Assembly: GCA_049294435.1 (NCBI GenBank)
Contig: JBAQCU010000020.1
Location: 79,110 to 125,310, forward strand
Reading direction: 5' to 3'
Source of the DNA: Minisyncoccia bacterium
GTDB lineage: Bacteria; Patescibacteriota; Minisyncoccia; Phycocordibacterales; UBA1550
DNA: 46,201 nucleotides
The notes under the pieces are model-generated. The model ran no database searches and had not been told where the DNA came from. It saw only the letters and a program-made list of their open reading frames with translations. Each line of letters starts with the position of its first letter. The first letter of the stretch is position 1. This document shows positions 3,961 through 43,768 of the stretch, one piece after another. A program made the translations under genes and the position numbers.

Positions 3961-3968
3961 TTTTGAAA

Positions 3969-4427
3969 TTACTCTGCTTTTGGAGTCTCTGTTGTTGATT
4001 CAGGAGATACTTCTTCTGTAGCTTCAGCTGTCACTTCAGATTGATCTTCTGCGACTACTTCTTCTGCAACTTCAGCTACAGGAGTTTCGGTTTCAACTGC
4101 AACTGGTGCTTTTGCTTCTACTTTAGGAGCCTCCCCTGCCTTTTCCTTTACAATAGGAGTCTTCCTTCCCAAAACGTTTATCTTCTTCCCTGTAACTGCC
4201 TTGAGGTCAATGAGGAGATTATGCACTGTGCCTGATGCTTTTGCGCCTACCGACATCCAGTACTTTGTGCGGTCAAGATTAATAATTGGTTTGCCCATGC
4301 GCGCATTGTATGAACCAAGAACCTCGATAAAGTTTCCAGTCTTTGGCTTCAATTTTGAATCTGCGACGATGACGCGGAATGATGGGTCATTCTTGCGGCC
4401 AACGCGCTGTAATCTGATGTTTAACAT
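3969..4427 (-). CDS. rpsP: 30S ribosomal protein S16 with an acidic Ala/Glu/Thr/Val-rich C-terminal extension
   Basis: MLNIRLQRVGRKNDPSFRVIVADS... is a canonical S16 N-terminus, so I prefer the internal ATG at 4427 over the TTG at 4463. The last ~70 aa are low-complexity (PVAVETETPVAEVAEEVVAEDQSEV..). Confidence 0.9.
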   Translation of the reverse strand: MLNIRLQRVGRKNDPSFRVIVADSKLKPKTGNFIEVLGSYNARMGKPIINLDRTKYWMSVGAKASGTVHNLLIDLKAVTGKKINVLGRKTPIVKEKAGEAPKVEAKAPVAVETETPVAEVAEEVVAEDQSEVTAEATEEVSPESTTETPKAE

Positions 4428-4446
4428 GAAGAGCATCCTATCAAAA

Positions 4447-4484
4447 AGCCCAGAAACAGTCAAGCATCTGACTGTTTCGGGGCT
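4447..4484 (-). promoter_or_regulatory. Terminator-like hairpin plus U-run about 20 nt upstream of the rpsP start
   Basis: Minus strand reads agccccgaaacagtca gatgct tgactgtttctgggct tttt (16 bp stem, 1 mismatch). No upstream co-oriented gene exists that it could terminate. Confidence 0.35.
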
Positions 4485-4486
4485 TT

Positions 4487-4573
4487 ACAACTGACCGCCA
4501 ACATTTAACAATTGACCAGAAAAAACGAATTGCATATAGTTCAACTGTCTCAGATGTCACCTGTCAAATGTTC
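4487..4573. repeat. TTGAC-word element, copy L2 (divergent rpsP/rnr intergenic region)
   Basis: acaactgaccgccaacatttaacaattgacc ... caactgtctcagatgtcacctgtcaaatgt. Same words as L1 and L3-L5. Confidence 0.4.
4512..4540 (+). promoter_or_regulatory. Sigma-70 type promoter for rnr
   Basis: TTGACC (4512-4517), 17 nt spacer, TATAGT (4535-4540). Confidence 0.55.
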
Positions 4574-6628
4574 CCCAATTGTGCTATCTTAATGAACAAT
4601 ATGACAGATAAAAAACAACTTGAATCAGCAGATTCACGTCTTGGGCGCTCCGGCAACTTTGTTGAAGGTGTTATTACCACAACGGCAAAGGGTTTCGGCT
4701 TTGTTTCTGTTGGCGAAGATAGTCCACGAGAAAACGACATTAAAATTGAGGCGGGGTTTCTCAATACCGCACTCCCACGCGACCGTGTAAAGGTGAGACT
4801 CAATGCCAAAATAAGCGACATACAACAGACTGGCGAGGTGGTTGAGGTACTTGCGCGCGCTAAGAACACTTTTGTTGGAACAATAGAGCAAGACAGTACG
4901 ACAACTTACTTAATTCCTCAAGACACGCGTATTTATGTTGACTTTCTTATTCCAAACCCACCGCACGAGGAAGAACTCAATGGCAAAAAAGTACTCGTAC
5001 GACTTTCAGGCTGGACAGACCCAAAGAAAAATCCTACGGCGGAGATTATTGAGGTTCTCGGTCAGGCTGGAGACAATGAAACAGAGATCCGCGCTATAGT
5101 CCTCGACAAAGGTCTCCAAATGGAGCTCCCAGATGAAATTCACCGCGAAGCTGACGCACTCAAGGCCAAGGCTCCAGCGTTCATCGCAGATGAAGCAAAG
5201 AAGCGACGCGACTTCCGCAAGGTAACAACTTTTACCATCGACCCTGTAGACGCAAAGGATTTTGACGATGCTATTTCTATACAAACACTTCCGAGCGGCG
5301 ACATCGAAATTGGTGTACATATTGCAGATGTGTCTGCATACGTAAAGCCACACGCGGCAATAGACGAAGAAGCTCGCCGTCGCGCAACATCTATATACTT
5401 AGTGGACCGTGTTGTACCAATGTTCCCTGAGGTTCTTTCAAACGACCTTTGTAGTTTGAACGAAAAAGAAGACAAGCTTGTTTTTTCAGCTGTGTTTACA
5501 TTCGCGCCAGATACTGCAAGCAACCCAACATCAAAAGTAACTGTGGAGGACGCATGGTTCGGACGCGCAATCATCAACTCGGCGAAGCGTTTTACATACG
5601 AGAACGCGCAAGAAATTCTCGATAATGGCAAAGGACTTTTTTATGATGAACTGAATACTCTCAATCTCATCGCAAAAAAATTGGTAGTACAGGACAGAAC
5701 AGAAGGCGCAATTTCCTTTGAACACGAGGAAGTGCGTTTTGAGTTGGACGAAAACAAAAAGCCTATTCGCGTGTACACAAAAAAGTTTCAAGATACTAAC
5801 AAGCTCGTTGAAATGTTTATGTTGCTCGCAAACAAAAAAGTTGCGGAATACGTTTCTTTAAAATTGAGTAACATTCAAGGAAAAACTGCTCACCCCGACC
5901 ACGAGGGAGATCTCTTTGTGTACCGCGTGCACGACGAGCCCAAAACAGAACGCCTTGTTGAGCTCTCAAAATTTGTCGCAGGACTTGGCTACAAGCTCCC
6001 TATCAAGGAAGGGCGTGTTTCATCCTCTGATATAAATAAATTCCTCGAACAGATAAAGGGCAAGCCTGAGGAAAATATGTTGAACACCGCAACCATTCGC
6101 ACAATGGCTAAAGCGATTTATTCCACACACAACATCGGGCACTACGGTCTTGCTTACGAGCACTACACTCACTTCACATCCCCTATTCGCCGTTATCCAG
6201 ACGTAATGGTACATCGCATTCTCGCCCACTTCCTCGCTGATGAAAAGGTGACTAAAGAGGAGATGGAGGAATACCGTAAACTCGCCTCTCACTCATCAGA
6301 AATGGAAAAGGCCGCGTCAGATGCCGAAAGAGCTTCTATCAAATTTAAACAGGCTGAGTATATGAGCGTGCGCGTGGGCAAGGAGTTTAACGGCACAATT
6401 TCGGGAGTTGCTGAGTGGGGTGTATTTGTGGAAGAAGATGAGACCAAGTGTGAAGGCCTCATTCGCATTTCTGATTTGGGTAATGACTACTATATTTTTG
6501 AAAGAGACAAATATCGCATTGTTGGCAGGCAAGGAAAGGAAAAATTCCAACTTGGCGATAAAATAAAGTTCCGCGTAAAAGAAGTTGATTTGGAAAAGAA
6601 GAGCATTGACTACGAACTGGTGAGGTAG
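4568..6628 (+). CDS. rnr: Ribonuclease R (RNB-family 3'-5' exoribonuclease)
   Basis: 686 aa with cold-shock-like N-terminus (KGFGFV), RNB motifs (DPVDAKDFDDAISI, HYGL..YTHFTSPIRRYPD) and a C-terminal S1 domain. The start could also be the ATG at 4592 or 4601. Confidence 0.9.
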   Translation: MFPNCAILMNNMTDKKQLESADSRLGRSGNFVEGVITTTAKGFGFVSVGEDSPRENDIKIEAGFLNTALPRDRVKVRLNAKISDIQQTGEVVEVLARAKNTFVGTIEQDSTTTYLIPQDTRIYVDFLIPNPPHEEELNGKKVLVRLSGWTDPKKNPTAEIIEVLGQAGDNETEIRAIVLDKGLQMELPDEIHREADALKAKAPAFIADEAKKRRDFRKVTTFTIDPVDAKDFDDAISIQTLPSGDIEIGVHIADVSAYVKPHAAIDEEARRRATSIYLVDRVVPMFPEVLSNDLCSLNEKEDKLVFSAVFTFAPDTASNPTSKVTVEDAWFGRAIINSAKRFTYENAQEILDNGKGLFYDELNTLNLIAKKLVVQDRTEGAISFEHEEVRFELDENKKPIRVYTKKFQDTNKLVEMFMLLANKKVAEYVSLKLSNIQGKTAHPDHEGDLFVYRVHDEPKTERLVELSKFVAGLGYKLPIKEGRVSSSDINKFLEQIKGKPEENMLNTATIRTMAKAIYSTHNIGHYGLAYEHYTHFTSPIRRYPDVMVHRILAHFLADEKVTKEEMEEYRKLASHSSEMEKAASDAERASIKFKQAEYMSVRVGKEFNGTISGVAEWGVFVEEDETKCEGLIRISDLGNDYYIFERDKYRIVGRQGKEKFQLGDKIKFRVKEVDLEKKSIDYELVR

Positions 6629-6633
6629 ATCAA

Positions 6634-6671
6634 AAAATAGCCCCCGCAACGTAAACGTTGCGGGGGTTTTT
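6634..6671. terminator. Bidirectional intrinsic terminator
   Basis: aaaaaatag cccccgcaacgt aa acgttgcggggg ttttta. Confidence 0.8.
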
Positions 6672-6687
6672 ACTTAGGCTTTTTGAC

Positions 6688-6966
6688 CTAATAATAATCA
6701 TTGCGAATATGAAACTCGCATGCCCAAAAGAAAAACATTAGCCAAAATGCGATTGCCCATATTGTTGCAGTACTATGTCCGCTTTCCTCTGTAGACAAAA
6801 CTGTGCCATAAACCGCAAGCGTTCCTATCACAATTCCGATTGGGACCTGTAGCACTCGTAACGGATGCAACTTATTCCACCACCGCAGTTTCTTTTCTGG
6901 TGGTTGGCGAAACTTATCCAGAGAAATTACTTTTGACTGGTCGCAACAACCGATTCCCTTACTCAT
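6688..6966 (-). CDS. Small hypothetical membrane protein
   Basis: I prefer the internal ATG at 6966 (MSKGIGCC..), preceded by AAGGAGAAAATA. The longer ORF would overlap the smc 3' end. Two predicted TM helices. Confidence 0.55.
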   Translation of the reverse strand: MSKGIGCCDQSKVISLDKFRQPPEKKLRWWNKLHPLRVLQVPIGIVIGTLAVYGTVLSTEESGHSTATIWAIAFWLMFFFWACEFHIRNDYY

Positions 6967-7024
6967 TATTTTCTCCTTAAAAATTGTAAAAAGTATAACT
7001 TTAGCAAGTATACCACAAATTGAG

Positions 7025-9268
7025 CTATTTTGCAAGTTGTTCCGCTTCCTCAAATTTTATAGAAAGAAGCTTTGAAATTGCGTCCGAACCCATGGTTACG
7101 CCGTAGATAATGCCCGCGCGTGACATAGTCTCGCGGTTGTGCGTGATGACAATAAGCTGAGAATACTTTGCAAGTGTTGCCACCATGTCGCCATACTTTT
7201 TAGAATTGGCTTCGTCAAGAGCAGCGTCTGTTTCGTCAAGAACGAGAAATGGTGGTGGGTTGACTTGAGACACTGCAAAGATAAGCGCAATAGAGGTAAG
7301 CGCGCGTTCACCTCCAGAAAGCATCTGAAGACCGCGGATTTTTTTGTGCGGAAGAGAAATAGCCACCTCAATCCCCTCTTCAGCCTCCTCTTCCTCAAGC
7401 TCTTCATGACCCTCTAGTATTTCCGTATCAGTTCTTTTTTTCTTTCTTTCTACCGCAACTTCTAGCGACGCAGTTCCTCCGCCAAACATCAATGCAAAAA
7501 ATTCACCAAACTGTTTATTGATTTTTTTGATACCATCTTTGAACTGCGTTCCAAGCTCCTCCTCGAGTCCGCGCATGAGGTCGCGAAGCGACTCTGCGCT
7601 CGTTTTCAAATCTTCAAGTTCCTTCTCAAGAAATTCGTCTCGAGCGACAGCCTCTTCGTACTCGCGCATAATATCCTCTCCCGAACCACCGCCCATAATA
7701 TCCTCTAAGCGAATCTTTGTACGTTCAATCTTTTTTCTGCGAGACTCTTGTTCCGCGCGAGGCTCCGATAGTGCTTGTTCAATATCAATCTGATTGCTTG
7801 AATATTCTAAAATAGCGCGCCCGATTAAAATTCCTCCTTCACGAAGCTCTTCACGGAATGAAACTTCATCTCGCGAAAAATTTTCTATGTGCTCACGCAC
7901 CATACCAAGACGCAAAGTAAGTTCCTGTTTTTTAGAACGAAACTCAAATGAAGCGCGCTCTGCGTCTGTGACCTCTCTGCGCTTCATTTCAAGCACCCTC
8001 TCTAATTCTTGAATCTTAGTTTCAAAACCAGAAATTAAATTTTCTAGGTTTTGTTGTGCGTCTAAAAGATTTTTGTGCTCAATACGCAAATCTAGAAGAC
8101 CTTTTACCGCAACCTCGCTGGGTCCTCTATTTGCGTCAGTTCCGCGAAGATGCTCAAGAAAGGAACCAATTTTATTTCGCGTTGCACTCACTACACCCTT
8201 TATATACAAATAGTCTTCACTTGACTCTGCATACCCAAGTTCATCATACAAATTTTGCGCGAGTTTCTCCGCCTCCTCCGCATTTACAGTTTTCTCGCGC
8301 AACACATCCGGCGCATTCAAACGCCTTTCCTCAAACTCAATCATTCCTTCAAAGCGTCCAATCTTTCTACCTAGGTCGTCCCTCTCGCGACGCACAGTAC
8401 CCATCTCCGCGCGCGTATGAACAAGCTCTACTACTTCGGCGCTGTCCTTTGTATCTACTCCACGCAAACTGTCAGCGTGAGCAAGCGCTTCGTTTGCCTC
8501 ATGAAGTTCACGCTCGAGATTTTCTTTTTCTCCTTGGAGCTTTTCGCGTGTGTGTTGTATGTATGTTTCTTCTCTCTTCAAATAGTCGCCATACATACTA
8601 GCAAGCTCGTCACGAAGCGCGCGCGCTTGTTCCACCTTCTCCACCTGCTTTTTCAAAAATTTAATATGCGGAGCTATCTCACGACGGAGGGATTCGCTTT
8701 GTCGCATATTTTCCTCTGTTTTTGAAAGTTTCTTTTCACTTTCAAGAATCTTCCAATGATAGATTTTTAGTCCGAGCGCGTCTTCGATCATTGCTCGACG
8801 GTCCTTTGCAGATGAATTTAGAATTCTATCAGCTTCCCCCTGAGAAATAATATGGTGCCCTGATGCGCCGATATGTACTGACGCTAGGAGTTCAATGACA
8901 TCCTTGAGTCGCACTGATGAGCCATTTAGAAAATATCCGCTAGAAGCATCGCGGTGAATCTCGCGAGAAATAGAAACTTCGTCGTAATCAATCGGAAATG
9001 TACGATCTTTGTTGTCAAAGGAAATCGTTACTTTTGCACGATTCTGACGCTCGGTATTTTTTGAACCATTGAAAATGAGGTCCTCCGTGCGCTTGCCACG
9101 CATACTTTTCAGAGACTGCTCCCCGAGCACGAAACGAAGCGCCTCAGCAACATTTGACTTCCCCGACCCGTTTGGCCCCACAATAGCTGAGATATCCGCC
9201 CCAAACTCAAAAACACTCTTCTTGGCGAATGATTTGAATCCGGAAATTTCGAGGGTTTTTACGCGCAT
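7025..9268 (-). CDS. smc: SMC-family chromosome-associated ABC ATPase, unusually short (747 aa)
   Basis: N-terminal head MRVKTLEISGFKSF...GPNGSGKSN, long heptad-rich middle, C-terminal LSGGERALTSIAL signature and FLVLDETDAALD Walker B. Confidence 0.8.
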   Translation of the reverse strand: MRVKTLEISGFKSFAKKSVFEFGADISAIVGPNGSGKSNVAEALRFVLGEQSLKSMRGKRTEDLIFNGSKNTERQNRAKVTISFDNKDRTFPIDYDEVSISREIHRDASSGYFLNGSSVRLKDVIELLASVHIGASGHHIISQGEADRILNSSAKDRRAMIEDALGLKIYHWKILESEKKLSKTEENMRQSESLRREIAPHIKFLKKQVEKVEQARALRDELASMYGDYLKREETYIQHTREKLQGEKENLERELHEANEALAHADSLRGVDTKDSAEVVELVHTRAEMGTVRRERDDLGRKIGRFEGMIEFEERRLNAPDVLREKTVNAEEAEKLAQNLYDELGYAESSEDYLYIKGVVSATRNKIGSFLEHLRGTDANRGPSEVAVKGLLDLRIEHKNLLDAQQNLENLISGFETKIQELERVLEMKRREVTDAERASFEFRSKKQELTLRLGMVREHIENFSRDEVSFREELREGGILIGRAILEYSSNQIDIEQALSEPRAEQESRRKKIERTKIRLEDIMGGGSGEDIMREYEEAVARDEFLEKELEDLKTSAESLRDLMRGLEEELGTQFKDGIKKINKQFGEFFALMFGGGTASLEVAVERKKKRTDTEILEGHEELEEEEAEEGIEVAISLPHKKIRGLQMLSGGERALTSIALIFAVSQVNPPPFLVLDETDAALDEANSKKYGDMVATLAKYSQLIVITHNRETMSRAGIIYGVTMGSDAISKLLSIKFEEAEQLAK

Positions 9269-16700: not shown

Positions 16701-16915
16701 ACATACACTCAATTATTACTAAAAAAGGAGACAAAATGGCATTCGTAAAATTAACCGATATGACAGGCACGCTTGAGCTCGTTATTTTTCCCGAGGCGCT
16801 CTTCACCCACAAAGAATTCTTTGAAACTCCCGACAGGTGCATCAAAGTAAAAGGAAAAATCTCTGAGCGTAACGGCGAAAAAACGCTGATTGTGGAGAGG
16901 GTGAAGGAGTTGTAA
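13727..16915 (+). CDS. dnaE: DNA polymerase III alpha subunit
   Basis: 1062 aa with an N-terminal PHP domain (FIHLHTHSHYSLLDG), the polymerase core and a C-terminal OB fold. Confidence 0.97.
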   Translation: MSEPKFIHLHTHSHYSLLDGLSKVGDMVKLAKHHGMNAIGLTDHGNMYGAIEFYKTCKSNGIKPIIGVEAYITPGSRHDKRPGIDTTRYHLTLLAKNATGYKNLVRLVTLSQLEGYYYKPRMDKEILRKHSDGIICLSGCFGSEISRAFRNRDRDEAERVALEHQEIFGKENYFLEIMHHPGVPGIEEVRNGIIALGKKLSIPLVATQDSHYLRSDDQRAHETLLAIQTNGDLNDENRFSMASDDFSFIDTERALGYFASTPEAVWNTQKIADMCDIKLKLGSWVFPDFKIPEGTTYDKELRRLAYEGILVRGLSPDDKGVTDRLEYELKVICDKGYAPYFLVVADLLRFANENGILTTVRGSVAGSITTYLLKITHVNPLEYKLPFERFLNPERPSAPDIDMDYADNRRDEVINYAREKYGADHVAQIGTFGTMMARGAVRDVARALGHPYVIGDKISRLIPEGSQGFPMTIDTALKMIPELADLYKNDATTTEIIDLAKKLEGCVRHISVHAAGVVISPVPLIDFVPTQLDPKGGKIITQYDMHAVEDAGLLKFDFLGIRNLSILGDAIRLVKERHGVAIDIENIPLDDLLTFAMLARGETMGLFQLNGSGMTRYLKELQPSTIHDINAMVALYRPGPMEMIPEYIKRKHNPSLVSYLDPRMKEILAMSYGVITYQDDVMMIAIKLAGYSWLDADKLRKAMGKKIPAEMQSQKEKLLKGFVDGGLTEKKAQELWLLIEPFAAYGFNKAHAASYGRLAYQTAYMKANYPIEYMTAILTAESGDTEKIAEIITECKRMKLPVLPPDINASYGGFTVVESNGNQEIRFGLYTIKNLGTDISDAIIAERGGKFAFTSFSDFLERIRHKNLNKKSLESLIKAGAMDAFGERGTMLANMEEALEYNKAQGKEMSGQESLFGIMSDQSSVPVLRLKPSDPVAKRDRLIWEKELLGLYVSGHPLDDHRAKLDSIGTTIESVKTLRDGMPAVAGGIVEHIHSIITKKGDKMAFVKLTDMTGTLELVIFPEALFTHKEFFETPDRCIKVKGKISERNGEKTLIVERVKEL

Positions 16916-16919
16916 TTTT

Positions 16920-16969
16920 CCCAACTGTCATATAAGAGATGCTGTAGCATCTCTTATATGACAGTTGGG
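16920..16969 (+). terminator. 23 bp perfect hairpin at the dnaE 3' end (no U-run)
   Basis: cccaactgtcatataagagatgc tgta gcatctcttatatgacagttggg, starting 5 nt after the dnaE stop. Confidence 0.5.
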
Positions 16970-16973
16970 GAAT

Positions 16974-17005
16974 AAAAAAACCGGTCGCCCTTTCGGAACG
17001 ACCAG
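16974..17005 (-). terminator. Intrinsic terminator of the 17020-17343 gene
   Basis: Minus strand reads ctggtcg ttccgaaagggc gaccgg ttttttt. Confidence 0.65.
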
Positions 17006-17484: not shown

Positions 17485-19254
17485 ATGAAAAACGAAGCCG
17501 AGGACACCAATCTCCATAATATCCGCCACTCCCTTGCGCACTTGCTCGCTATTGCGGTGCTTGAAAAGGACCCGAACGCAAAGCTCGGTATCGGGCCGGT
17601 AATTGAAAACGGTTTTTACTATGACTTTGAATTTTCAAACGGCTACACCCCTACCCCCGAGGACCTGAAGGGTTTTGAAAAGGCGATGCGTAAAATGGTG
17701 AACAAAGGTCTTCCTTTTGAAGGGCGCGCCGTATCGGTGGATGAAGCAAAAAAGATGTTTGAGGGACAGCCATACAAAGCGGAGCTCATAAATGAATTTG
17801 CTGATGAAGGAAAAGATTTAACACTCTATAAGACTGGCGACTTCACTGACCTCTGCAAAGGCGGGCACGTAGAAAATACAAAAGAAATCCCTGCGGATGC
17901 ATTTACCATCACGCACACTGCAGGCGCATACTGGCGTGGAAGCGAAAAAAATCCGATGCTCACCCGCATCTACGGTCTCGCATTTGAAAGTGGCGAGGCT
18001 CTTGATGCGTACAAACTTCAAATTGAGGAAGCAAAAAAGCGCGACCACCGAAAGCTCGGCAAGGAGCTTGGACTTTTTACATTTTCTGAGCTAGTAGGTC
18101 CTGGTCTTCCTCTCTGGACACCAAAAGGCACAATGATTCGAGAGCTCCTGAACGACTATGTGTGGGAGCTCCGCAAAGCGCGCGGTTTTCAAAAAGTAAC
18201 CATTCCTCACATCACAAAAAAAGATCTTTACGAGACGTCGGGACACTGGAAGAAATTTGCTGATGAACTTTTTAAGATTACCACGCGCGAAGGGCACGAG
18301 TATGCAATGAAGCCCATGAATTGCCCCCACCATACGCAGATTTTTGCATGCGAACAACGAAGCTACCGAAACATGCCACAGCGCTACTGCGAGACAACCA
18401 TGGTGTACCGCGACGAACAGTCCGGTGAACTATCGGGACTTTCTCGCGTACTCTCAATCACTCAGGACGATGCACACGTATTTTGTCGCGAAACACAGAT
18501 AGAACAGGAGATTTTTGCTATCTGGGATATCATTGATACTTTCTATAAAACGTTTGGCTTTGAAAATATGCAGGTACGGTTCTCACGTCACGACCCTGAA
18601 ACTTTTGAGAAATATCTTGGTACAAAGGAGGTTTGGGATAAGGCTGAATCAGCAATTGATGGCCTTCTAAAAAAACGCGGTATTGAAAACTATATCGACG
18701 GAAAAGGAGAAGCCGCAATGTATGGCCCGAAGATTGATTTCATTACGAAAGACTCTATCGGTCGCACACTTCAGGTTGCAACTATTCAGCTCGACTTCAA
18801 CCAACCAGCTAGTTTTGATCTTGTGTGTATGAACGAGAAGGGAGAAAAAGAGCAGGTGGTGATGGTTCACTGCGCAATCATGGGTTCTATCGAACGCTTT
18901 ATGTCTACGCTTATAGAACATACTGCTGGTGCCTTCCCACTGTGGCTTTCACCAGTGCAGGTAAAAATTCTTCCTATTAGCGAAAAGTTCGTGGACTATG
19001 CTGAGAAAGTTCGGGGGGAGCTTGTGGGCGCTGGTATCCGTGTAGAGCTTGATGATTCCAATGAATCACTTGGTAAGCGTATACGAGTGGCAAAAACAGA
19101 AAAAGTTCCGTACATTCTTGTCCTCGGCGAAAAAGAGGCTGAAGAGGGTACTGTAACTGCAGAGCGTCGCGATGGCGGACATTTAGACGCTTTACCTATT
19201 GCTGAATTTTTGGCAATCGCGAAACGCGAGATTGATACAAAAGAAATCTGGTAA
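17485..19254 (+). CDS. thrS: Threonyl-tRNA synthetase (no N-terminal TGS domain)
   Basis: 589 aa. Starts directly in the editing domain (RHSLAHLLA, DLCKGGHV), followed by the class II core and an anticodon-binding domain. Confidence 0.97.
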   Translation: MKNEAEDTNLHNIRHSLAHLLAIAVLEKDPNAKLGIGPVIENGFYYDFEFSNGYTPTPEDLKGFEKAMRKMVNKGLPFEGRAVSVDEAKKMFEGQPYKAELINEFADEGKDLTLYKTGDFTDLCKGGHVENTKEIPADAFTITHTAGAYWRGSEKNPMLTRIYGLAFESGEALDAYKLQIEEAKKRDHRKLGKELGLFTFSELVGPGLPLWTPKGTMIRELLNDYVWELRKARGFQKVTIPHITKKDLYETSGHWKKFADELFKITTREGHEYAMKPMNCPHHTQIFACEQRSYRNMPQRYCETTMVYRDEQSGELSGLSRVLSITQDDAHVFCRETQIEQEIFAIWDIIDTFYKTFGFENMQVRFSRHDPETFEKYLGTKEVWDKAESAIDGLLKKRGIENYIDGKGEAAMYGPKIDFITKDSIGRTLQVATIQLDFNQPASFDLVCMNEKGEKEQVVMVHCAIMGSIERFMSTLIEHTAGAFPLWLSPVQVKILPISEKFVDYAEKVRGELVGAGIRVELDDSNESLGKRIRVAKTEKVPYILVLGEKEAEEGTVTAERRDGGHLDALPIAEFLAIAKREIDTKEIW

Positions 19255-19255
19255 A

Positions 19256-19296
19256 GAAAAAAGAGCGACATCATAGAATGTCGCTCTTTTTTCTTT
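19256..19296. terminator. Bidirectional intrinsic terminator
   Basis: aaaaaagagcgaca tcatagaa tgtcgctctttttt. Confidence 0.8.
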
Positions 19297-19940: not shown

Positions 19941-22013
19941 TTACGCATCAATATTTGCCATCTTTGCGTTAGACTGAATAAAAGACTTGCGCGCTGAAAC
20001 GTCTTCACCCATTAAAACATCAAATGTCTTGTCTGCATCTACGGCGTCATCAATGGTAACTTGTTTCAAAATACGAGACTTTGGATCCATCGTTGTTTCC
20101 CACAGCTCCTCTGGGTTCATTTCTCCGAGACCTTTGTATCTCTGTAGAGAAATCTTCGGAGTTTTCTTTTTTCCGCCTGTTTCTATTTCCTCCTCTCCTT
20201 CCGCGTCAGTCCGCGTCTCGTCCGCATCGTTCTGCGTCTCTCCTTCATCTACGACTTCGAGTAAACTTACATCCTTTCCAAGGAACGCAATTTTCTCTTC
20301 TTCGCTGTATGCATAGCTAATTTCTTTTCCACGCTTAATCTTATAAAGTGGCGGTTGAGCGATATAGATGTATCCCCCTTCAATGACCTGTTTAAAGTAT
20401 CGGTAAAAAAGAGTAAGTAGAAGAGCGCGAATATGAGCGCCGTCAACGTCTGCATCTGTTGCTATGATAATTTTATGATAGCGAAGTTTCGACATATCAA
20501 ACACGTCGCCAATACCAACACCGAGAGCAATAACGAGCGATTTGATTTCGTTTGACTCAAGCATACGGTCCAAACGCGCGCGCTCTACGTTCAAAATCTT
20601 ACCCTTTAGTGGCAGAATCGCTTGCGTCTTTCTATCACGCCCTTGCTTTGATGAACCGCCTGCAGAATCTCCCTCTACGATAAATAGCTCCGAGTCCTCT
20701 GCCTTGTTGGTCGTGCAGTCTGCGAGCTTGCCCGGGAGAGTGAGCCCCTCGAGCGCGCCTTTGCGGAGCACGCTGTCCTTTGCGGCTTTTGCGGCCTTGC
20801 GCGCGCGTAAAGCGAGGATTACCTTATTTACAATTGCACGGCCATCGTCTGGGTTCTCTTCGAGGAACATTCCGAGTGCCTCACCAAAAACCTTTTCAAC
20901 AGCGCCACGCGCTTCCACAGAGCCAAGTTTCCCTTTTGTTTGCCCTTCAAATTGGATCTCACGCATCTTTACAGAGATAGCGCATGTTAGGCCCTCGCGC
21001 ACATCGTCAGCTGTAAAATTTTCATCAGCCTCCTTGAGAAAATTATTTTTTCTCGCGTAATCATTGATCCGACGCGTGAGCGCAGTACGAAAACCAGTGA
21101 CGTGAGTACCGCCTTCTTGATTGTAAATGTTGTTTGCAAATGCGAGCTCGCGAGATGAGATGTCGTCAATATACTGAAAAGCAACTTCTACCATCACACT
21201 ATCCATTTCTTTTTCAACATAACAAATATTTTTGTGTACGGGTTTTTGATGCTGGTTGTAAAAACGCACAAGCGACACAAGACCTCCATCAAAGTAGAAT
21301 GACATTGAAGGAACTTCAAGCTGGAAGTCCGCAAGGAACACCTCGTTATCCAGCTTCAATTTGTCTTCTGATTTTCTTGCATCTATGATGACAATCTGAA
21401 GGCCCTTTACGAGATACGCTTGCTGACGAAGATGGTTAATAATTTGATTCCAGTTCCAACCCATCTCCTTAAAGATAAGTTCGTCCGGTTCAAATGTAAC
21501 AATAGTGCCATGAAATTTCGTGGTGCCAACTTTTTTCACCGCGGACTTTCTTTTGCCACGCTCGTACTCCTGCATATGAATTGCGCCGTCGCGATGTACC
21601 TCTACTTTTGTAAATACAGAGAGCGCATTTACCACTGACGCGCCGACACCATGGAGTCCTCCAGAAACTTTATAGCTCGTTCCTTCAAACTTTCCTCCCG
21701 CGTGGAGTGTCGTCATAATTGTTTCAAGAGCTGAAACTTTTGTTTTGGAGTGAATGTCTGTTGGAATACCGCGACCGTTGTCCACCACACGCACACGGTT
21801 GCCTGGGAGAAGCGCTACCTCAATATAATCGGCAAAACCACCCATCGCCTCATCGCGCGAGTTGTCAAAAATCTCCCAAATGAGGTGGTGAAGCCCCTCC
21901 GGCCCCGTGGAGCCAATATACATACCCGGACGCTTACGCACAGGCTCAAGCCCTTCAAGGACGACGATATCCTCTGCTCCGTATCCTTCGGTTTTTTCGT
22001 CTTTTTTTGCCAT
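19941..22013 (-). CDS. gyrB: DNA gyrase subunit B
   Basis: 690 aa with GHKL ATPase (GLHHLIWEIFDNSRDE), Toprim (EGDSAGG) and QRYKGLGEM. An acidic insertion (EGETQNDADETRTDAEGEEE) precedes the last motif. Confidence 0.98.
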   Translation of the reverse strand: MAKKDEKTEGYGAEDIVVLEGLEPVRKRPGMYIGSTGPEGLHHLIWEIFDNSRDEAMGGFADYIEVALLPGNRVRVVDNGRGIPTDIHSKTKVSALETIMTTLHAGGKFEGTSYKVSGGLHGVGASVVNALSVFTKVEVHRDGAIHMQEYERGKRKSAVKKVGTTKFHGTIVTFEPDELIFKEMGWNWNQIINHLRQQAYLVKGLQIVIIDARKSEDKLKLDNEVFLADFQLEVPSMSFYFDGGLVSLVRFYNQHQKPVHKNICYVEKEMDSVMVEVAFQYIDDISSRELAFANNIYNQEGGTHVTGFRTALTRRINDYARKNNFLKEADENFTADDVREGLTCAISVKMREIQFEGQTKGKLGSVEARGAVEKVFGEALGMFLEENPDDGRAIVNKVILALRARKAAKAAKDSVLRKGALEGLTLPGKLADCTTNKAEDSELFIVEGDSAGGSSKQGRDRKTQAILPLKGKILNVERARLDRMLESNEIKSLVIALGVGIGDVFDMSKLRYHKIIIATDADVDGAHIRALLLTLFYRYFKQVIEGGYIYIAQPPLYKIKRGKEISYAYSEEEKIAFLGKDVSLLEVVDEGETQNDADETRTDAEGEEEIETGGKKKTPKISLQRYKGLGEMNPEELWETTMDPKSRILKQVTIDDAVDADKTFDVLMGEDVSARKSFIQSNAKMANIDA

Positions 22014-22535: not shown

Positions 22536-23066
22536 CTAGAATACCGCCATCCTGCGCCATTTTGAGCGGAAAATATCCATCGGCACAAAGAGGTTTTCGC
22601 CGTCACCTTTTTGTGTCGTATCGGAGTCGTGGTAATAAAATCCAATCGCCACGCCGTCCTTTTCTTCAAACCCTGTGAGCACAACCATATGAAATTTATC
22701 TGCCTCTTGAAACTTCTTAATTGCGGACACAATCACTGCGCGACCAGCGCGTAATTCTGAAATTAGGAAATTAATTCCCTCTTCATTTAATTCATCGTGG
22801 GTTTTTGATTCAGATTTTCGCCATTCATTTCTAGAAAGTTTTACTCCGTATTGTCGCGCAAGAGCAACAAGCCCGTCGTGCTTCCACCCGTACTCACCGT
22901 GCGCACCTATCGCGCATCCTTGCGCTATCATTTCATCCAGAGTTGGCGTTTCTTCTCCTAGCGCTTCAAGGAGCATTTTCAAACATGCTACTCCACACGC
23001 GCGCGGTTGCCACAACTCGTCTGTAACATCTAAATATTGAGAGTAATATGGAACGTTGATTTTCAT
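22536..23066 (-). CDS. Papain-like cysteine peptidase, C39-like family
   Basis: MKINVPYYSQ...RACGVACLKMLL (catalytic Cys context) and a downstream His. I prefer the ATG at 23066 over the GTG at 23096, which lies inside a hairpin. Confidence 0.65.
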   Translation of the reverse strand: MKINVPYYSQYLDVTDELWQPRACGVACLKMLLEALGEETPTLDEMIAQGCAIGAHGEYGWKHDGLVALARQYGVKLSRNEWRKSESKTHDELNEEGINFLISELRAGRAVIVSAIKKFQEADKFHMVVLTGFEEKDGVAIGFYYHDSDTTQKGDGENLFVPMDIFRSKWRRMAVF

Positions 23067-23080: not shown

Positions 23081-23136
23081 CTCCCCCAGCTTTCACTAAT
23101 TCTCGCTATCGCGAGAATTAGTGAAAGCTGGGGGAG
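23081..23136 (-). terminator. 26 bp perfect hairpin between pheT and the C39-like gene
   Basis: ctcccccagctttcactaattctcgc tatc gcgagaattagtgaaagctgggggag. Starts 8 nt after the pheT stop. No clean U-run follows. Confidence 0.45.
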
Positions 23137-23143: not shown

Positions 23144-25519
23144 TTACCGCACACCAAGTCCTTTTTCAGAAAGTTTTGCAGTAATATTTGCCATTACTTC
23201 ATTTATCTCCATGTCTGAAAGTGTGCGCTCGGGCGACTGGAATACAAGATTGAACGCGTAGGAAGTTTTTGAGTCTTTTGTAAACACGTCGAAAAGTCTA
23301 TCGTGCACAAGCAAATCGGTTCCTTCCGATCTAATGATCTTAATAATTTCATCTTGCGTTACGTCCTGTGTCCACAGTGCAATATCGCGAAGCACAAACG
23401 GGTATGCGGAAATTCTCTTATAAGGAACATTTACTGATGAAGGAGTTAGTGGTTCGTATTTCCCGCTGGTATTTTTGCATACAGGAAGCGGGCACTCCCA
23501 CACGTTACCATTCTCACTCCAGGAAACCTCGACGCCAAAAACATCTTCAACTGCTTTGTGCGCTTGGTGCAGGATTATGCGCTCCATTTCCTCCTTTTTA
23601 GACTGCTTCATATTTTTTGTCACTGTTGCACCGATAGAGATATGTATAGATTCTTTTCCAGCCGAAAAAAATACTGTGCCGATTTCAAACATTAAAATTT
23701 GATCCGTGCCCAATAAAGGGGCGTTGCGCGCATTAAACACGAGGGCTTCTGCCATCCCGTCGGAGAGATTATCGCGGAGAAAATTCACTCCCTCTGCCAT
23801 AGGATTTACGATTTCAACTTTTCCATCTTTGCGAAATGCATAAGTAAAAATCTCGGAGAAACCAAGCGAAGCAAAAGTGTTGCGTACACGAAGCATTGTG
23901 TCGTAAAGATCATTGTGGGTCGGTGTAAAAGCATCTGGAGCAAGTTTTGCAACAGAGATTTTTTCGTACCCTATCAAACGCGCAATCTCTTCAGTGATAT
24001 CTGCAGAAATACGGATATCAAAGCGTTCTGCTGGTGCGACTACTGAAAACCTCTCTTTTTTAATTGCAGGAATTCGTCTCGCCCCTGTGATATTTTTGAA
24101 ACGAGGACTATCTGCGAGTTTTTCAATAAGAACACCACCTGCTTCTCCGATAATTTTATTGTAGCGTGAGGCGTGTGCTATCATTCCGTCGCCAAGATAC
24201 ACGCCCACGTGGTCTATTCCTTGTTCTCGTATTTTTGTCCCTTTCATCCATTCAATACTTTCGTGATAAATCTCGCTACCTTCATTTACTGAGAAAACTA
24301 AATCTCCAGCCTGGAGCGCGTCTAGTGAGACGTCATCTCCAAACACATACTGATCAACTGAAATTCGTGGGATTTTTATTCCCGCTTCTAGATATAGGTA
24401 CGCCACGAACCCTGAGCAGTCAAACTTATTTGGAGCGTCAAATAGTACACTAGCGCCGTAAAAGTACGGAGTGCCGACTAATTCCTTCGCGCGAAGCGCG
24501 ATTTTTTTACCAGGATTTTCAATCTGTTCATATGAAAAACCAAGTCTCGTTAAATCCCGCATTAAGTCCTCCGTTCTATAAGTAATTCCTAAAATACGCG
24601 CAACGTCATTTGATGACATACTAACGCGATATGGGTTAGCTCTACGCGGATACACATCCACTATTTCGCCTGCTTTCGCGTCTGGGAAAATTTCTAAAAG
24701 AAGTTCGGTTGAGCGCTCCATTGCGATCGGCGCAATTTCTGGCGCGCGGTTGTGCTCAAAACGGCGAGATGAATCGGTGCGGATGTTTACCGAGGCAGAC
24801 GCTTTGCGCACGAGAGCCGAATCAAACGTTGCCGATTCCAGTACTATAGTATTTACTTTTGCTCCGACCCCTGCATGCGCGCCTCCTTTCACCCCAGCGA
24901 TTGCTAGTGGCCGTATTTTGTCGGCAATTACAAGGGTTTCATTCGGAAGAATGATGTCTTTACCATCCAACGTCTCAATTTTTTCTTTTGCTTCGTTTGT
25001 ATTGCGCACGATGATTTTAATTCCACCATTTACGTCGCGATTTAACTTATCGGCATCAAATGCGTGCATTGGTTGTCCAAGCTCAAGCATTACAAAATTT
25101 GTCACATCTACAATCGCGTTTATACTTCTCTGCCCTACCGATTCAAGCGCATCACGAAGCCACGCAGGCGATTCACGACCATCTACCCCTTCCACAACTC
25201 TACCAACATATCGCAAACACGCTTTTGGTTCTCTCACTTCAACCTCTAGAGCTGCCCTAATTTCAGATGTTTTTACTTTTGGTGAAAAAGATTTGAGCTT
25301 AACATCGCTGAACACTGCCAACTCTCGCACGAGTCCTATCCACGACAAAAGGTGTCCTCGGTCAGGGGTAATCTTTAATTCAAAAATAGTATCGTCATTT
25401 TTTTTGTCTGTACTTTCGACTTCACAGATGTACTCTAAAAAAATACGTGAGAGCTCCACAGGTTCTGGGAGATTATCGGCGTATTGCGTGAGGTTTTTGT
25501 ACGATGCAAAAATGTTCAT
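23144..25519 (-). CDS. pheT: Phenylalanyl-tRNA synthetase beta subunit with an inserted NlpC/P60 domain
   Basis: 791 aa with B3/4 (RYVGRVV..SPAWLRDALESVGQRSINAIVDVTNFVMLELGQPMHAFD), B5 (SNDVARILGITYRTEDLMRDLTRLGF), then a ~155 aa insert, then the canonical FSVVAPAERFDIRISADITEEIARLIGYEKI and C-terminal domains. Confidence 0.95.
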   Translation of the reverse strand: MNIFASYKNLTQYADNLPEPVELSRIFLEYICEVESTDKKNDDTIFELKITPDRGHLLSWIGLVRELAVFSDVKLKSFSPKVKTSEIRAALEVEVREPKACLRYVGRVVEGVDGRESPAWLRDALESVGQRSINAIVDVTNFVMLELGQPMHAFDADKLNRDVNGGIKIIVRNTNEAKEKIETLDGKDIILPNETLVIADKIRPLAIAGVKGGAHAGVGAKVNTIVLESATFDSALVRKASASVNIRTDSSRRFEHNRAPEIAPIAMERSTELLLEIFPDAKAGEIVDVYPRRANPYRVSMSSNDVARILGITYRTEDLMRDLTRLGFSYEQIENPGKKIALRAKELVGTPYFYGASVLFDAPNKFDCSGFVAYLYLEAGIKIPRISVDQYVFGDDVSLDALQAGDLVFSVNEGSEIYHESIEWMKGTKIREQGIDHVGVYLGDGMIAHASRYNKIIGEAGGVLIEKLADSPRFKNITGARRIPAIKKERFSVVAPAERFDIRISADITEEIARLIGYEKISVAKLAPDAFTPTHNDLYDTMLRVRNTFASLGFSEIFTYAFRKDGKVEIVNPMAEGVNFLRDNLSDGMAEALVFNARNAPLLGTDQILMFEIGTVFFSAGKESIHISIGATVTKNMKQSKKEEMERIILHQAHKAVEDVFGVEVSWSENGNVWECPLPVCKNTSGKYEPLTPSSVNVPYKRISAYPFVLRDIALWTQDVTQDEIIKIIRSEGTDLLVHDRLFDVFTKDSKTSYAFNLVFQSPERTLSDMEINEVMANITAKLSEKGLGVR
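24056..24523 (-). other. NlpC/P60 papain-like hydrolase domain inserted in PheT (about residues 333-488)
   Basis: GTPYFYGASVLFDAPNKFDCSGFVAYLY (catalytic Cys), GDLVFS, IDHVGVYLGDGMIAHAS (His plus third polar residue). The family motifs appear in the canonical order. Confidence 0.75.
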
Positions 25520-25530: not shown

Positions 25531-26337
25531 CTAAAATTGATTCACGAGCCTAAGGTCACCAGAGTAAAGCAGGCGCACATCTTCAATGCCATATTTAAGC
25601 ATCACGAGCCTGTCTACCCCGACGCCAAAAGCAAATCCACTGTATTTGCGTGGATCAATACCGCTTGCTTGCAAAACATTCGGGTGCACCATCCCACCGC
25701 CCATCACCTCTATCCAACCAGAACGCTTGCATACATTGCACCCTGCACCTTTACACAGGAAACAGGACACATCAATTTCTACCCCTGGCTCCACAAACGG
25801 GAAGAAACTCGGGCGCATTCGCATTTTAATATCATCTCCAAAAAGTTTTTTGAAAAAAAATTCGAGCGTTCCCTTGAACTCAGCCATAGTGACATCTTCT
25901 CCAACCACAAGCCCTTCCACTTGGTGAAATTGCGTCTCATGTGTTGCATCGGTTGCTTCATAACGAAATACTTTTCCAGGCACAACAATGCGGAGCGGCG
26001 GTTTGCTCTTTTCCATATAACGAATCTGAACTGGTGATGTGTGTGTACGCAAGAGGAACTTTTGACCATTGACCATTGACATGTGACTGGAATTCAATTC
26101 CCCTTCAATTGTTTCTTTGTCAATTGTCAATTGTCCTTTCTGGTTGCCACGCAACCAGAAAGTATCCTGCATATCGCGCGCAGGGTGATTCTCTGGAACA
26201 TTGAGCGCGTCAAAATTATAATGCTCGGTTTCAATCTCGGGACCAAGCGCAACTTCAAACCCGAGCTCAGTAAAAATACGCACGATTTCATCCATAGTAC
26301 GTGAGAGGGGGTGGATATGACCAAGTTTTTCTTCCAT
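25531..26337 (-). CDS. pheS: Phenylalanyl-tRNA synthetase alpha subunit (no N-terminal coiled coil)
   Basis: 268 aa with HPARDMQDTFW, LLRTHTSPVQIRYM, FRYEATDATHETQFHQVEG and the Cys knuckle CFLCKGAGCNVCKRSGW. Confidence 0.95.
   Translation of the reverse strand: MEEKLGHIHPLSRTMDEIVRIFTELGFEVALGPEIETEHYNFDALNVPENHPARDMQDTFWLRGNQKGQLTIDKETIEGELNSSHMSMVNGQKFLLRTHTSPVQIRYMEKSKPPLRIVVPGKVFRYEATDATHETQFHQVEGLVVGEDVTMAEFKGTLEFFFKKLFGDDIKMRMRPSFFPFVEPGVEIDVSCFLCKGAGCNVCKRSGWIEVMGGGMVHPNVLQASGIDPRKYSGFAFGVGVDRLVMLKYGIEDVRLLYSGDLRLVNQF
26062..26136. repeat. TTGAC-word element, copy L3, inside the pheS coding sequence (25 codons)
   Basis: ttgaccattgaccattgacatgtgactggaattcaattccccttcaattgtttctttgtcaattgtcaattgtcc. 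Encodes PheS residues G68-Q92 (GQLTIDKETIEGELNSSHMSMVNGQ). Confidence 0.45.
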
Positions 26338-30047: not shown

Positions 30048-31175
30048 CTACGGCACCAAATACATCTGCTTGATAAAGTACTCTTCTGGTCCCGGACTTG
30101 CCGTGCATCCTTGCGATGGTTGAATCATCAAATCAGTAATAATGCCGTTCCAGTCCGCCAGCCCTGACATGCCGAGATTGTACACTCTTGCGGAGTCATA
30201 ATTGAATGTACCATTATGCCACGCATTGTCCGGCTTGCGATACCAAATTACCACTGGGTTCGTAACACATCTAAAGTCGAGAGCGAGCACTAAGTGCTTG
30301 AATACGTCGGCATTAAGCGTAATCTCGCGGCTACAAACTGCAGTTTCACCGCACGCCACATCTCCAAAGAAACTACCACGACCGACATATGGATTCACAG
30401 AACTGCTGTCTATCCATAGGTCGCTATTCGTAGCATTATAAGCATTCACAAACATTGCGCCCCACAATTCCTTGTTGTTGTTTTCAGCAAATGTATAGAA
30501 ATATGCATAGCCGAGAACGAACGGGAGAGGATTGTGGGTGTATTGCGGTACTTCAGGAATAGCGATGTCATCTGAATCTTCTACGCGACCTGTAGGATAC
30601 CATGGGTATGGGTCCGCATGCGGTTTATCTACTTGGAAGTGCAGGTGCGAGCCTGTGCTAGTGCCGTGACATGGATCCGAAAGCGCACCACCAGATTCGC
30701 CAATGGTTAACCCCTCAGCGACAGGAGCCCCAACGGCTGGCGCTGATACGCTACGGAGATGAGCATATCCAAGATAGGCCTTCTCTCCTGCTACATAAGG
30801 ACTATTAACTTCGATCACAACGAGCCCTCCCCATGTAGAGTCGCAAGTATCGCGACGCACCACGGTTCCAGATAGCGCAGCGAGCACGGGTGTTCCACTT
30901 ACAACTGCTATGTCCACACCCGGATGTTTACCGCATCGTTCCCCTGCACAACCAGATGTACGATTGTAGTTATCGCGATATAACGTTGTAAACATTTTGC
31001 GACCAGCAGTGCTGTCGCAGTTTGCCGTAGCACTATCGCAATCACCTCCTGTAGCAGGTGTCCCATAGTAAGTGCCATTGTAGTCTGGCATGTTTGCAAT
31101 CGGTTTAGTACCAGCTATTGCTGTTTGTCCAAAATTAGCAACGCACAACAAAACGACCATGAGTAACTTCTTCAT
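30048..31175 (-). CDS. Secreted M23 (LytM-type) metallopeptidase with an uncharacterised C-terminal domain
   Basis: Signal peptide MKKLLMVVLLCVANFGQTAIAG, HxxxD (HPGVD) and HxH (GSHLHFQV) motifs. The C-terminal ~180 aa are unassigned. Confidence 0.85.
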   Translation of the reverse strand: MKKLLMVVLLCVANFGQTAIAGTKPIANMPDYNGTYYGTPATGGDCDSATANCDSTAGRKMFTTLYRDNYNRTSGCAGERCGKHPGVDIAVVSGTPVLAALSGTVVRRDTCDSTWGGLVVIEVNSPYVAGEKAYLGYAHLRSVSAPAVGAPVAEGLTIGESGGALSDPCHGTSTGSHLHFQVDKPHADPYPWYPTGRVEDSDDIAIPEVPQYTHNPLPFVLGYAYFYTFAENNNKELWGAMFVNAYNATNSDLWIDSSSVNPYVGRGSFFGDVACGETAVCSREITLNADVFKHLVLALDFRCVTNPVVIWYRKPDNAWHNGTFNYDSARVYNLGMSGLADWNGIITDLMIQPSQGCTASPGPEEYFIKQMYLVP

Positions 31176-33643: not shown

Positions 33644-34219
33644 ATGCAAAAGTGGCTAATCACTGGACTTATTGTGGTATTTTTAGCGCTTGCGGTGCAG
33701 GATGGGTTTTTAAGCATGATTGACGATGATACAGCCCCGCTTCTTACGAGGTCGGACCTCGTAAGAAGCGGGGCTGTCAAACAGCTAGCCTCACTATCAA
33801 ATCCTACTCTGCCTATCGTGATCCGCGTAATAGATGGCGACACTATTATAGTTCTCGTAAATGGTGCACAAGAAAAAATACGTCTAATAGGTGTAGACAC
33901 ACCAGAAACTGTTGACCCGCGAGGGTCAGTGCAGTGCTTCGGCGAGGAAGCAAGCGAATTCACAAGGTCAATACTTGTAAACCAAGTTGTTCGCCTAGAG
34001 TCTGATGCTTCGCAGGATGACCGCGATAAATATGGACGACTTCTACGTTATGTATTTCTTGGAGATACTTTGATAAACAAAGAACTTATATCTCTAGGTT
34101 ATGGGCACGAATACACTTATCGTCGAGTATACAAGTACCAAAAAGAGTTTAAAGATGCCGAGATGAGCGCGCGTAATTCACAAGAAGGTCTGTGGTCTGA
34201 GTCGGCTTGCAAGGATTGA
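33644..34219 (+). CDS. Membrane-anchored staphylococcal-nuclease-like (SNase/thermonuclease) protein
   Basis: MQKWLITGLIVVFLALAV (TM), then IRVIDGDTIIV...IRLIGVDTPE...RDKYGRLLRYVF. I prefer ATG 33644, because the TTG-extended ORF is made of repeat D. Confidence 0.85.
   Translation: MQKWLITGLIVVFLALAVQDGFLSMIDDDTAPLLTRSDLVRSGAVKQLASLSNPTLPIVIRVIDGDTIIVLVNGAQEKIRLIGVDTPETVDPRGSVQCFGEEASEFTRSILVNQVVRLESDASQDDRDKYGRLLRYVFLGDTLINKELISLGYGHEYTYRRVYKYQKEFKDAEMSARNSQEGLWSESACKD
33731..33777. repeat. 47 bp palindrome (23 bp perfect arms) inside the nuclease CDS
   Basis: acagccccgcttcttacgaggtc g gacctcgtaagaagcggggctgt. Encodes TAPLLTRSDLVRSGAV in the linker between the TM helix and the nuclease domain. 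Confidence 0.9.
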
Positions 34220-34722: not shown

Positions 34723-34769
34723 ATTAAAACGAAAGGCGTAGCCCGGAGGGCTACGCCTTTCGTTTTAAT
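34723..34769. terminator. Bidirectional terminator (22 bp stem)
   Basis: attaaaacgaaaggcgtagccc gga gggctacgcctttcgttttaat. Confidence 0.8.
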
Positions 34770-43720: not shown

Positions 43721-43768
43721 AAAAACCAAAACCGCACCGTTTATGCAAACGGTGCGGTTTTGGTTTTT
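43721..43768. terminator. Bidirectional terminator (22 bp stem)
   Basis: aaaaaccaaaaccgcaccgttt atgc aaacggtgcggttttggttttt. Confidence 0.85.

Follow-up and report, generated by a model that had tools for sequence, protein, structure and literature searches.

The window, i.e., the whole analysed stretch of 46,201 nt from the Minisyncoccia bacterium contig JBAQCU010000020.1, carries a pheS-pheT locus encoding phenylalanyl-tRNA synthetase (PheRS). The β subunit gene pheT (23144..25519) was found as a single uninterrupted open reading frame (ORF) of 791 aa, and a papain-like domain of the NlpC/P60 peptidase family was recognized inside it. Directly upstream lies pheS (25531..26337), encoding an α subunit of 268 aa that lacks the N-terminal coiled coil. 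Directly downstream lies a Peptidase_C39_2 gene (22536..23066), whose product is 176 aa long from the ATG at 23064-23066. All of these genes, and the domains and codons located in them below, are on the minus strand.

The domains of the synthetase were assigned by Pfam and NCBIfam searches. PheT was recognized as pheT_bact (TIGR00472) with 403.4 bits, barely above the cut-off of 402.65, because of the insert and a missing N-terminus. With the match starting only at profile position 156, the N-terminal B1/B2 region is missing, and tRNA_bind (PF01588, B1/B2) gave no Pfam match on the window PheT. The few relatives that retain PF01588 were P0082 and P0109, of approximately 900 aa. In PheS, the TIGR00468 match starts at profile position 68. 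By these profile matches, the window PheRS is a minimised form, i.e., a short PheS and a PheT without B1/B2. The B3/B4 editing domain was found at aa 100-278 of PheT (24686..25222, 185 bits), the catalytic-like module (CLM) at aa 540-662, and FDX-ACB at aa 704-786. The B5 domain was matched in its second half only (aa 485-518, profile positions 34-67 of 67). The first half of B5 was assigned to aa 295-333 (24521..24637), ending in a strand of aa 329-333, and the second half to aa 488-520 (23960..24058), beginning with a strand of aa 490-494.

The inserted module comprises 154 residues, aa 334-487 (24059..24520). Its boundaries were read from an alignment with 119 homologues, as the gap in five insert-less relatives, i.e., P0034, P0035, P0039, P0048, and P0075. 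They lie within one residue of those in the preliminary description of this DNA (aa 333-488, nt 24056-24523), which had been made from the letters alone and had proposed a catalytically intact NlpC/P60 domain inside PheT. The Pfam search agrees with that proposal. NLPC_P60 (PF00877) was matched at aa 349-457 (24149..24475) with an E value of 2e-18, i.e., 66.7 bits against a gathering score of 23. The family motifs quoted at that time, i.e., GTPYFYG, FDCSGF, GDLVF, DHVGVYLG, and MIAHAS, are all present, and the reading frame is continuous. The predicted nucleophile is Cys368 of FDCSGF (codon 24416..24418), the predicted catalytic histidine is His437 of DHVGVYLG (24209..24211), and the third polar residue of the triad is His449 of MIAHAS (24173..24175). 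Between the GDLVF and DHVG strands, a family-specific extension was found at aa 411-433 (24221..24289), i.e., VNEGSEIYHESIEWMKGTKIREQ. It contains approximately 15-20 residues more than canonical p60 domains, and the autolysin structure 7cfl is gapped opposite to it. E420, E423, G427, and T428 are conserved within this extension. The GC content of the insert is 0.42-0.43, the same as that of the flanking sequence.

The structure of PheT was predicted by AlphaFold2 from a 57-sequence alignment. The predicted local distance difference test score (pLDDT) averaged 89.3 over the model and lay at 93-96 in most of the insert. In the model, B5 opens with a strand (298-301), two helices (303-310 and 316-326), and the strand 329-333; after the insert, B5 continues with the strand 490-494 and a helix (505-516). 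The B5 domain is usually described as winged-helix-like, and in the model the peptidase domain sits between two of its strands. Cys368 is the first residue of the helix 368-378, His437 is in the strand 437-443, and His449 is in the neighbouring strand 446-451. This modelled placement corresponds to the classic papain-like arrangement.

In Foldseek search against the Protein Data Bank (PDB), the whole PheT model matched PheRS β chains, and the insert matched NlpC/P60 structures. The best of them was the Clostridioides difficile autolysin Acd24020 (7cfl), with a template modelling score (TM) of 0.88, a root-mean-square deviation of 2.5 Å, and 34% identity. Acd33800 (9ubf) followed with TM 0.87 and MepS (7v6s) with TM 0.83, and YkfC was also matched. 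By PDB sequence search, 7cfl was again the best (E 8e-16), followed by 4xcm and 4fdy, i.e., DL-endopeptidases and autolysins. Across Pfam, NCBIfam, PDB sequence, and Foldseek searches, the insert matched only NlpC/P60 families, with none to the editing or deacylase folds B3/B4-CtdA, YbaK/INS, AlaX, and DTD. No SH3b match was found, and the module is bordered by the B5 halves only. The domain is internal to a cytoplasmic synthetase and shows no signal peptide, lipobox, or wall-binding module. Neither the module nor the C39_2 protein matched the defence models of PADLOC.

The insert is widely distributed. More than 100 clusters (clustering at 90% identity) have the same architecture of approximately 790 aa, down to 39% identity, and the named ones belong to Ca. 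Yonathbacteria, Campbellbacteria, Paceibacterota, and Minisyncoccia. The window PheT is 77-79% identical to Yonathbacteria proteins. These clusters come from independent NCBI, JGI, ENA, and Logan assemblies; therefore, a chimeric assembly, which the preliminary description had wished to see excluded, is ruled out. When the insert alone was searched against 1.84 billion representative proteins, mostly proteins of approximately 780-810 aa were hit, matched at about residues 335-480. The pooled set contained 306 modules, of which 203 were embedded in PheT and 103 were free. More than 200 PheT clusters share one insertion point.

Conservation of the predicted catalytic residues is high in this set. 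Of the 306 modules, 305 have the Cys and 304 the first His. At the third position, nearly all modules carry H, Q, or D, and this residue is conserved in approximately 290 of 306. It is H in 189 of the 203 PheT modules, with Y and D next, and it is distributed as H 60, Q 36, D 4, and Y 2 among the 103 stand-alone ones. Mean pairwise identity is slightly higher in the insert (0.54) than in the remainder of PheT (0.505). The ratio of nonsynonymous to synonymous substitution rates (dN/dS) with two close relatives was 0.04-0.05 in the insert against 0.06-0.08 in the rest of the gene, values that are approximate as dS is near saturation. The insert is thus under purifying selection, and it is ancient in this clade.

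The history of gain and loss was examined by a neighbour-joining (NJ) tree of PheT, with insert columns removed, Escherichia coli as outgroup, and no support values. The insert-less proteins were scattered inside the insert-bearing clade as separate branches, i.e., P0075, P0048, P0034, and P0035 with P0039, and their deletion boundaries differ. The simplest history would be a single insertion in an ancestor and, later, its clean excision on at least three occasions. P0121, P0122, and P0138 were considered as donor candidates and rejected. These are secreted wall proteins in which NlpC/P60 is repeated 5-9 times in tandem, mostly without the Cys, and their high scores against the insert are due only to the number of copies. 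Module proteins of 400-650 aa were also considered as PheT variants without B3/B4. Their N-termini resemble truncations at contig ends or at internal Met codons, and they were not used as evidence.

The module also exists outside PheT. Free proteins of approximately 190-240 aa with the order B5a-NlpC/P60-B5b correspond in the alignment to PheT aa 296-522. Their initial Met lies just ahead of the first B5 strand (YK[IL]G[IF]S), and their C-terminus just past the last B5 helix. No hydrophobic leader was seen on these stand-alone forms, which open directly with the B5 strand (MYKLGFS...). By profile search, more than 100 stand-alone clusters were found in Paceibacterota, Zambryskibacteria, and Parcubacteria. 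One of them, P0125, has genes on both sides within its contig and is therefore a complete gene. The model of the stand-alone P0301 is one compact body (pLDDT 94, predicted TM 0.89), and it showed the same NlpC/P60 matches in Foldseek as the embedded insert. In an NJ tree of the modules, which was poorly resolved, the free forms nest among PheT inserts, 77 of them in a single clade and the others in several small ones. The large free clade shows the co-varying changes D367S, R385S, and Q390K.

In four loci, i.e., L088, L089, L090, and L162, the stand-alone gene was found at the pheT position of the syntenic block. In the first three, the block is the same as in the window, i.e., L31 and/or RF1, then S2 and Tsf, and further gyrB, thrS, and dnaE. 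In these three loci, pheS-pheT is replaced by a gene of approximately 380 aa with a class-II α core and FDX-ACB (L088, 6821-7963; L089, 6859-8004; L090, 6818-7960), and the gene was also found in L162, L165, and L167. The module and the PheRS-like genes overlap in L089, and they are divergently transcribed in L088 and L090. The single-chain protein scored 228-240 against the mitochondrial-type PheRS model (pheS_mito, TIGR00469; cut-off 258) and 248-249 against the PheS-related mystery ligase SrmL (NF051887; cut-off 300). It shares the α-core and FDX-ACB architecture with both families, but the gene is bacterial (Paceibacteria) and falls below both curated cut-offs. It may be an unreported single-chain bacterial PheRS in Paceibacteria.

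The Peptidase_C39_2 protein encoded behind pheT matched PF13529 with an E value of 1e-11, i.e., 46.1 bits against a threshold of 24. In a five-sequence alignment, Q20, C34, H136, and D157 are invariant (numbering of the 186-aa ORF), and the columns of Q20, C34, and H136 reach at least 95% conservation in a set of 120 family members. No leader peptide was seen on the protein. The PDB search gave no informative relative, the best E value being 0.045.

The C39_2 gene is closely linked to the module. In the sample collected by PheT homology, it adjoins pheT downstream in six of seven insert-bearing loci, i.e., the window, L004, L087, L006, L172, and L173, and its start codon often overlaps the pheT stop codon in these loci. 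The second sample, collected by C39_2 homology, comprised 80 metagenomic loci. The module lies just upstream on the same strand in 52 of them. The distance from the end of the pheT ORF to the C39_2 match mostly amounts to only a few bases, with slightly negative values in several loci. The upstream sequence was too short in 23 loci, most of which start inside the 3' end of pheT. L121 was the only locus with at least 2.6 kb upstream and no module. In L112, L161, L102, and L165, the module was not seen in the available 1.5-1.9 kb. The short loci L165 and L167 carry the single-chain PheRS-like gene, an unrelated ORF, and then C39_2.

Fusions and decay of the partner gene were also found. In two protein clusters, P0328 and P0333, the stand-alone module and C39_2 are joined in one chain. 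The C39_2 gene is absent from the insert-less loci L002 and L086. Behind the insert-less pheT of L171, a C39_2 pseudogene remains (6107-6371), with an in-frame stop, a frameshift, and a deletion of approximately 80 codons including the His/Asp region. Among the matches listed, no C39_2 homologue was located within 6 kb at approximately 75 insert-less pheT loci of other bacteria; the insert-bearing loci in that listing were L006 and L007. A functional link is argued from the fusions and from the decay of C39_2 in some insert-less relatives. The association of the module with C39_2 is strong but not absolute. As a separate observation, L161 (1595-3418) has a C39_2 homologue without upstream pheT and a MurC-like ORF immediately after it, and this weakly hints at a connection with peptidoglycan-peptide metabolism.

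From these results, the module is proposed to be an autonomous cytoplasmic cysteine hydrolase, carried in B5 after a single insertion, working with C39_2 and probably cleaving a gamma-glutamyl or murein-stem amide bond. This proposal as a whole is given about an even chance. A p60-type domain would have entered once, in the ancestor of a large clade of Paceibacteria, which belong to the candidate phyla radiation (CPR). It would have been placed into the loop between the two flanking B5 strands and retained as a predicted intact enzyme. B5a-NlpC/P60-B5b would then form an autonomous folding and functional unit, independent of B3/B4, CLM, and the anticodon-binding domain, and comparative genomics suggests B5 as its scaffold and pheT as its carrier. 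The module is probably cytoplasmic and would be paired with the adjacent Peptidase_C39_2 as a two-peptidase system. Its chemistry would be thiol-mediated amide hydrolysis by Cys368, His437, and His449. The bond is most probably of gamma-glutamyl or murein-stem type as judged from homology, because nearly all hallmarks of p60-type DL-endopeptidases are retained. The free form, the pairing and fusion with C39_2, the p60 hallmarks, and the net acidity of the module together point to a function independent of the rest of PheRS β.

The closest known enzymes are DL-endopeptidases of the p60, LytE, CwlO, and Acd24020 type (MEROPS C40, PF00877). The insert shares with them the fold (TM 0.83-0.88), the Cys-His-His triad, and the motifs G-x-P-Y, FDCSGF, PR-S-DQ, GDLVF, DHVG-Y-G, and the C-terminal G-x-RR. 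Unlike them, it has neither a signal peptide nor a wall-targeting domain (LysM, SH3b, or coiled coil). It is nested within a domain of a cytoplasmic housekeeping enzyme and has the conserved extra loop of approximately 15-20 residues. The YkfC-type enzymes (3h41, 2evr, 2hbw) are cytoplasmic gamma-D-Glu-L-diamino-acid endopeptidases. These enzymes serve murein-peptide recycling, and their N-terminal SH3b domains select a free L-Ala N-terminus. The module resembles them in having an NlpC/P60 domain that presumably acts inside the cell on free peptides. YkfC-type enzymes appear among its structural matches, but the similarity is lower than to autolysin-type domains, and the module has no SH3b domain.

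Several points weigh against this proposal. The gamma-glutamyl or murein-peptide assignment is drawn only from similarity to characterised relatives, and the module carries neither a secretion signal nor the SH3b domains of the YkfC type. A cytoplasmic DL-endopeptidase without regulation could attack peptidoglycan precursors. The changes D367S, R385S, and Q390K alter three canonical pocket residues in the main free clade, so the specificity may vary across the family. The C39_2 gene is not adjacent to the module in L007, L088, and L090. In L007 (Campbellbacteria), a DUF5715 protein follows the insert-bearing pheT instead of C39_2. In the PheT-homology sample, C39_2 was present in six of seven insert-bearing and in one of four insert-less loci, which gave a one-sided Fisher p of approximately 0.09 by hand calculation ignoring phylogeny. 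This statistic of co-loss is weakened because L174, which is insert-less and a sister of L171, has an intact C39_2 (3672-4202). In this copy, a Gly that is at least 95% conserved is changed to Asp. The linkage could also be in part an inherited gene order in a highly syntenic clade. Finally, a free module beside an editing-less PheRS-like gene is equally compatible with a role related to PheRS. As an observation on L007 itself (3799-4521, 6500-7492), its DUF5715 protein has a SPHTKGQSFDIDG motif, and a D-Ala-D-Ala-ligase-like ORF lies approximately 2.7 kb downstream of pheT.

A new synthetase-associated activity is the other general possibility, and it is held to be doubtful. The module and C39_2 would either hydrolyse or transfer an aminoacyl or peptidyl group from tRNAPhe through a covalent thioester, or act as a dedicated peptidase pair freeing the amino-acid substrate of PheRS in an auxotrophic symbiont. 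If true, the tRNAPhe thioester version would amount to proofreading by a chemistry of a new class, available in trans to the editing-less single-chain PheRS as well.

Hydrolysis of the ester of aminoacyl-tRNA or N-acyl-aminoacyl-tRNA, as extra proofreading in cis and in trans for the single-chain PheRS without B3/B4, is the main rival explanation but is considered rather improbable. The module is embedded in an aminoacyl-tRNA synthetase, and a thiol nucleophile could readily attack an activated ester. This possibility stays alive because the free module, the sole retained pheT piece, remains beside the editing-less PheRS-like gene and overlaps it in L089. There is also a precedent in CtdA, a free-standing aminoacyl-tRNA deacylase of B3/B4 fold derived from PheRS β (PMC12449066). 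CtdA, like the stand-alone module, is a PheRS β piece that became an independent small protein. However, it is an editing domain acting on tRNA, whereas the module is B5 with a foreign peptidase and without homology to editing domains.

The state of the editing site also speaks against a tRNA ester as substrate. The residues R244, N254, H265, G318, E334, T354, and A356, which we take to be the editing residues of E. coli B3/B4, were mapped by placing E. coli K-12 PheT on the family alignment. The seven are conserved in 113-115 of 115 insert-bearing PheTs, with R or K at the R244 position in 114 and S or A at the A356 position in all. They are likewise conserved in all five insert-less relatives, with S at the A356 position. 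The proofreading site is therefore intact, and the insert fills no gap. Canonical aminoacylation and B3/B4 editing of PheRS appear unchanged. The preliminary description had suggested an additional or replacement proofreading activity or a moonlighting function. Replacement does not fit with the conserved B3/B4 residues, and the moonlighting alternative is closer to the present results. In addition, with a median pI of 5.3 and a net charge of -6, the module is acidic, which gives no hint of RNA binding, and it keeps the p60 hallmarks of peptide binding. No role with tRNA is apparent for its partner, which is another peptidase. In L165 and L167, the PheRS-like gene and C39_2 are present with no module in the sequence between them, and the module was cleanly lost several times from an otherwise unchanged PheRS. 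Activity on tRNA is not known for any NlpC/P60 enzyme.

Supply of Phe is a further explanation, in which the module and C39_2 would release Phe or a different amino acid from small conjugates, e.g., gamma-Glu-Phe, or from scavenged peptides and feed the PheRS of an auxotroph. CPR bacteria are auxotrophic scavengers, the closest relatives of the module cleave gamma-glutamyl amide bonds, and the association with PheRS at the gene level persists in fused and split forms. Nevertheless, this explanation is purely inferential, nothing links the specificity to Phe, and the free form is divergent from the PheRS-like gene in L088 and L090. It is regarded as quite unlikely.

A non-catalytic module is held to be very unlikely. 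Such a module would stabilise a PheRS that is without B1/B2 and the α coiled coil, or bind a ligand. This would suit the minimised PheRS (PheS of 268 aa and PheT without B1/B2), and inactive NlpC/P60 domains exist, e.g., RipD (4jxb), which is among the PDB sequence matches of the insert. However, the Cys and His are near-invariant in approximately 300 diverged modules, which would be needless for binding alone. The insert-less relatives do without the domain in an equally minimised PheRS, and the module is retained where PheT is gone. An assembly chimera or a recent functionless selfish insertion, favoured only by the oddity of the architecture, is already refuted by more than 200 independent clusters with one insertion point, native composition, and dN/dS of approximately 0.05.

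The glutathionylspermidine synthetase/amidase is a known enzyme with a partly similar design, in which a CHAP amidase is fused end-to-end to an ATP-dependent ligase and one metabolite is processed in opposite directions. A papain-like Cys amidase and an ATP-dependent ligase in one cytoplasmic polypeptide are common to both proteins. The difference is that the known enzyme is an end-to-end fusion with a shared metabolite, whereas the domain of PheT is nested.

Aminoacyl-tRNA synthetases gain appended domains in eukaryotes. Both parts of the present protein belong to established families; the novelty lies in the nesting and in its behaviour during evolution. The sequences are public, and the proteins are labelled in databases as 'C40 family peptidase' or 'phenylalanine--tRNA ligase beta subunit-related protein'. 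In a literature search of open-access papers and bioRxiv, no described example was found, as the preliminary description had supposed; the nested architecture, the stand-alone remnant, the C39_2 link, and the single-chain PheRS-like enzyme of Patescibacteria were all undescribed there. Nothing relevant was found there on SrmL or on a cytoplasmic NlpC/P60 protein of Patescibacteria either. An intact foreign hydrolase nested in the core domain of a bacterial synthetase and kept throughout a CPR radiation appears undescribed. The comparative series, i.e., insert, clean losses, free remnant, fusions, and partner decay, is close to a natural dissection experiment. It shows selection on the peptidase module itself.

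The free protein of approximately 200 aa, which folds well in the model, and its C39_2 partner are concrete reagents for substrate finding. A tRNA- or Phe-linked substrate would make the module a new kind of quality control or of substrate supply for a synthetase. With a murein peptide as substrate, it would reveal a way in which ultra-small symbionts recycle cell-wall material or scavenge it. The split loci also point to an apparently unreported reduction of the bacterial (αβ)2 PheRS to a single chain in Paceibacteria.

Further features were found around the locus. The gyrB gene (19941..22013, minus strand) is the conserved downstream anchor of the syntenic block. A Peptidase_M23 protein of 375 aa is encoded at 30048-31175 in the same block, a few kb from pheST. 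In E. coli K-12 (L001, NC_000913: 1792267-1797944), nlpC lies approximately 2.8 kb downstream of pheT in the order pheST-ihfA-btuCED-nlpC, and this proximity is almost certainly coincidental.

Between the pheT stop and the C39_2 ATG, a perfect inverted repeat of 26 bp with a 4-nt loop was found (23081..23136). The free energy of the RNA hairpin is -53 kcal/mol (z -12). Its 3' arm has GGGGGAG approximately 15 nt ahead of the C39_2 start codon, so the hairpin could act as a transcription terminator or occlude the ribosome-binding site of C39_2. Further perfect intergenic hairpins were observed near gene ends, i.e., at 33731-33777, 34723-34769, 43721-43768, and 19253-19296. Their arms are 19-23 bp long and each is unique in sequence, and one lies just after tRNA-Ser. 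A longer repeat of 49 nt with 78% complementarity was found at 16895-16994. Long perfect stem-loops seem to be a trait of this genome.

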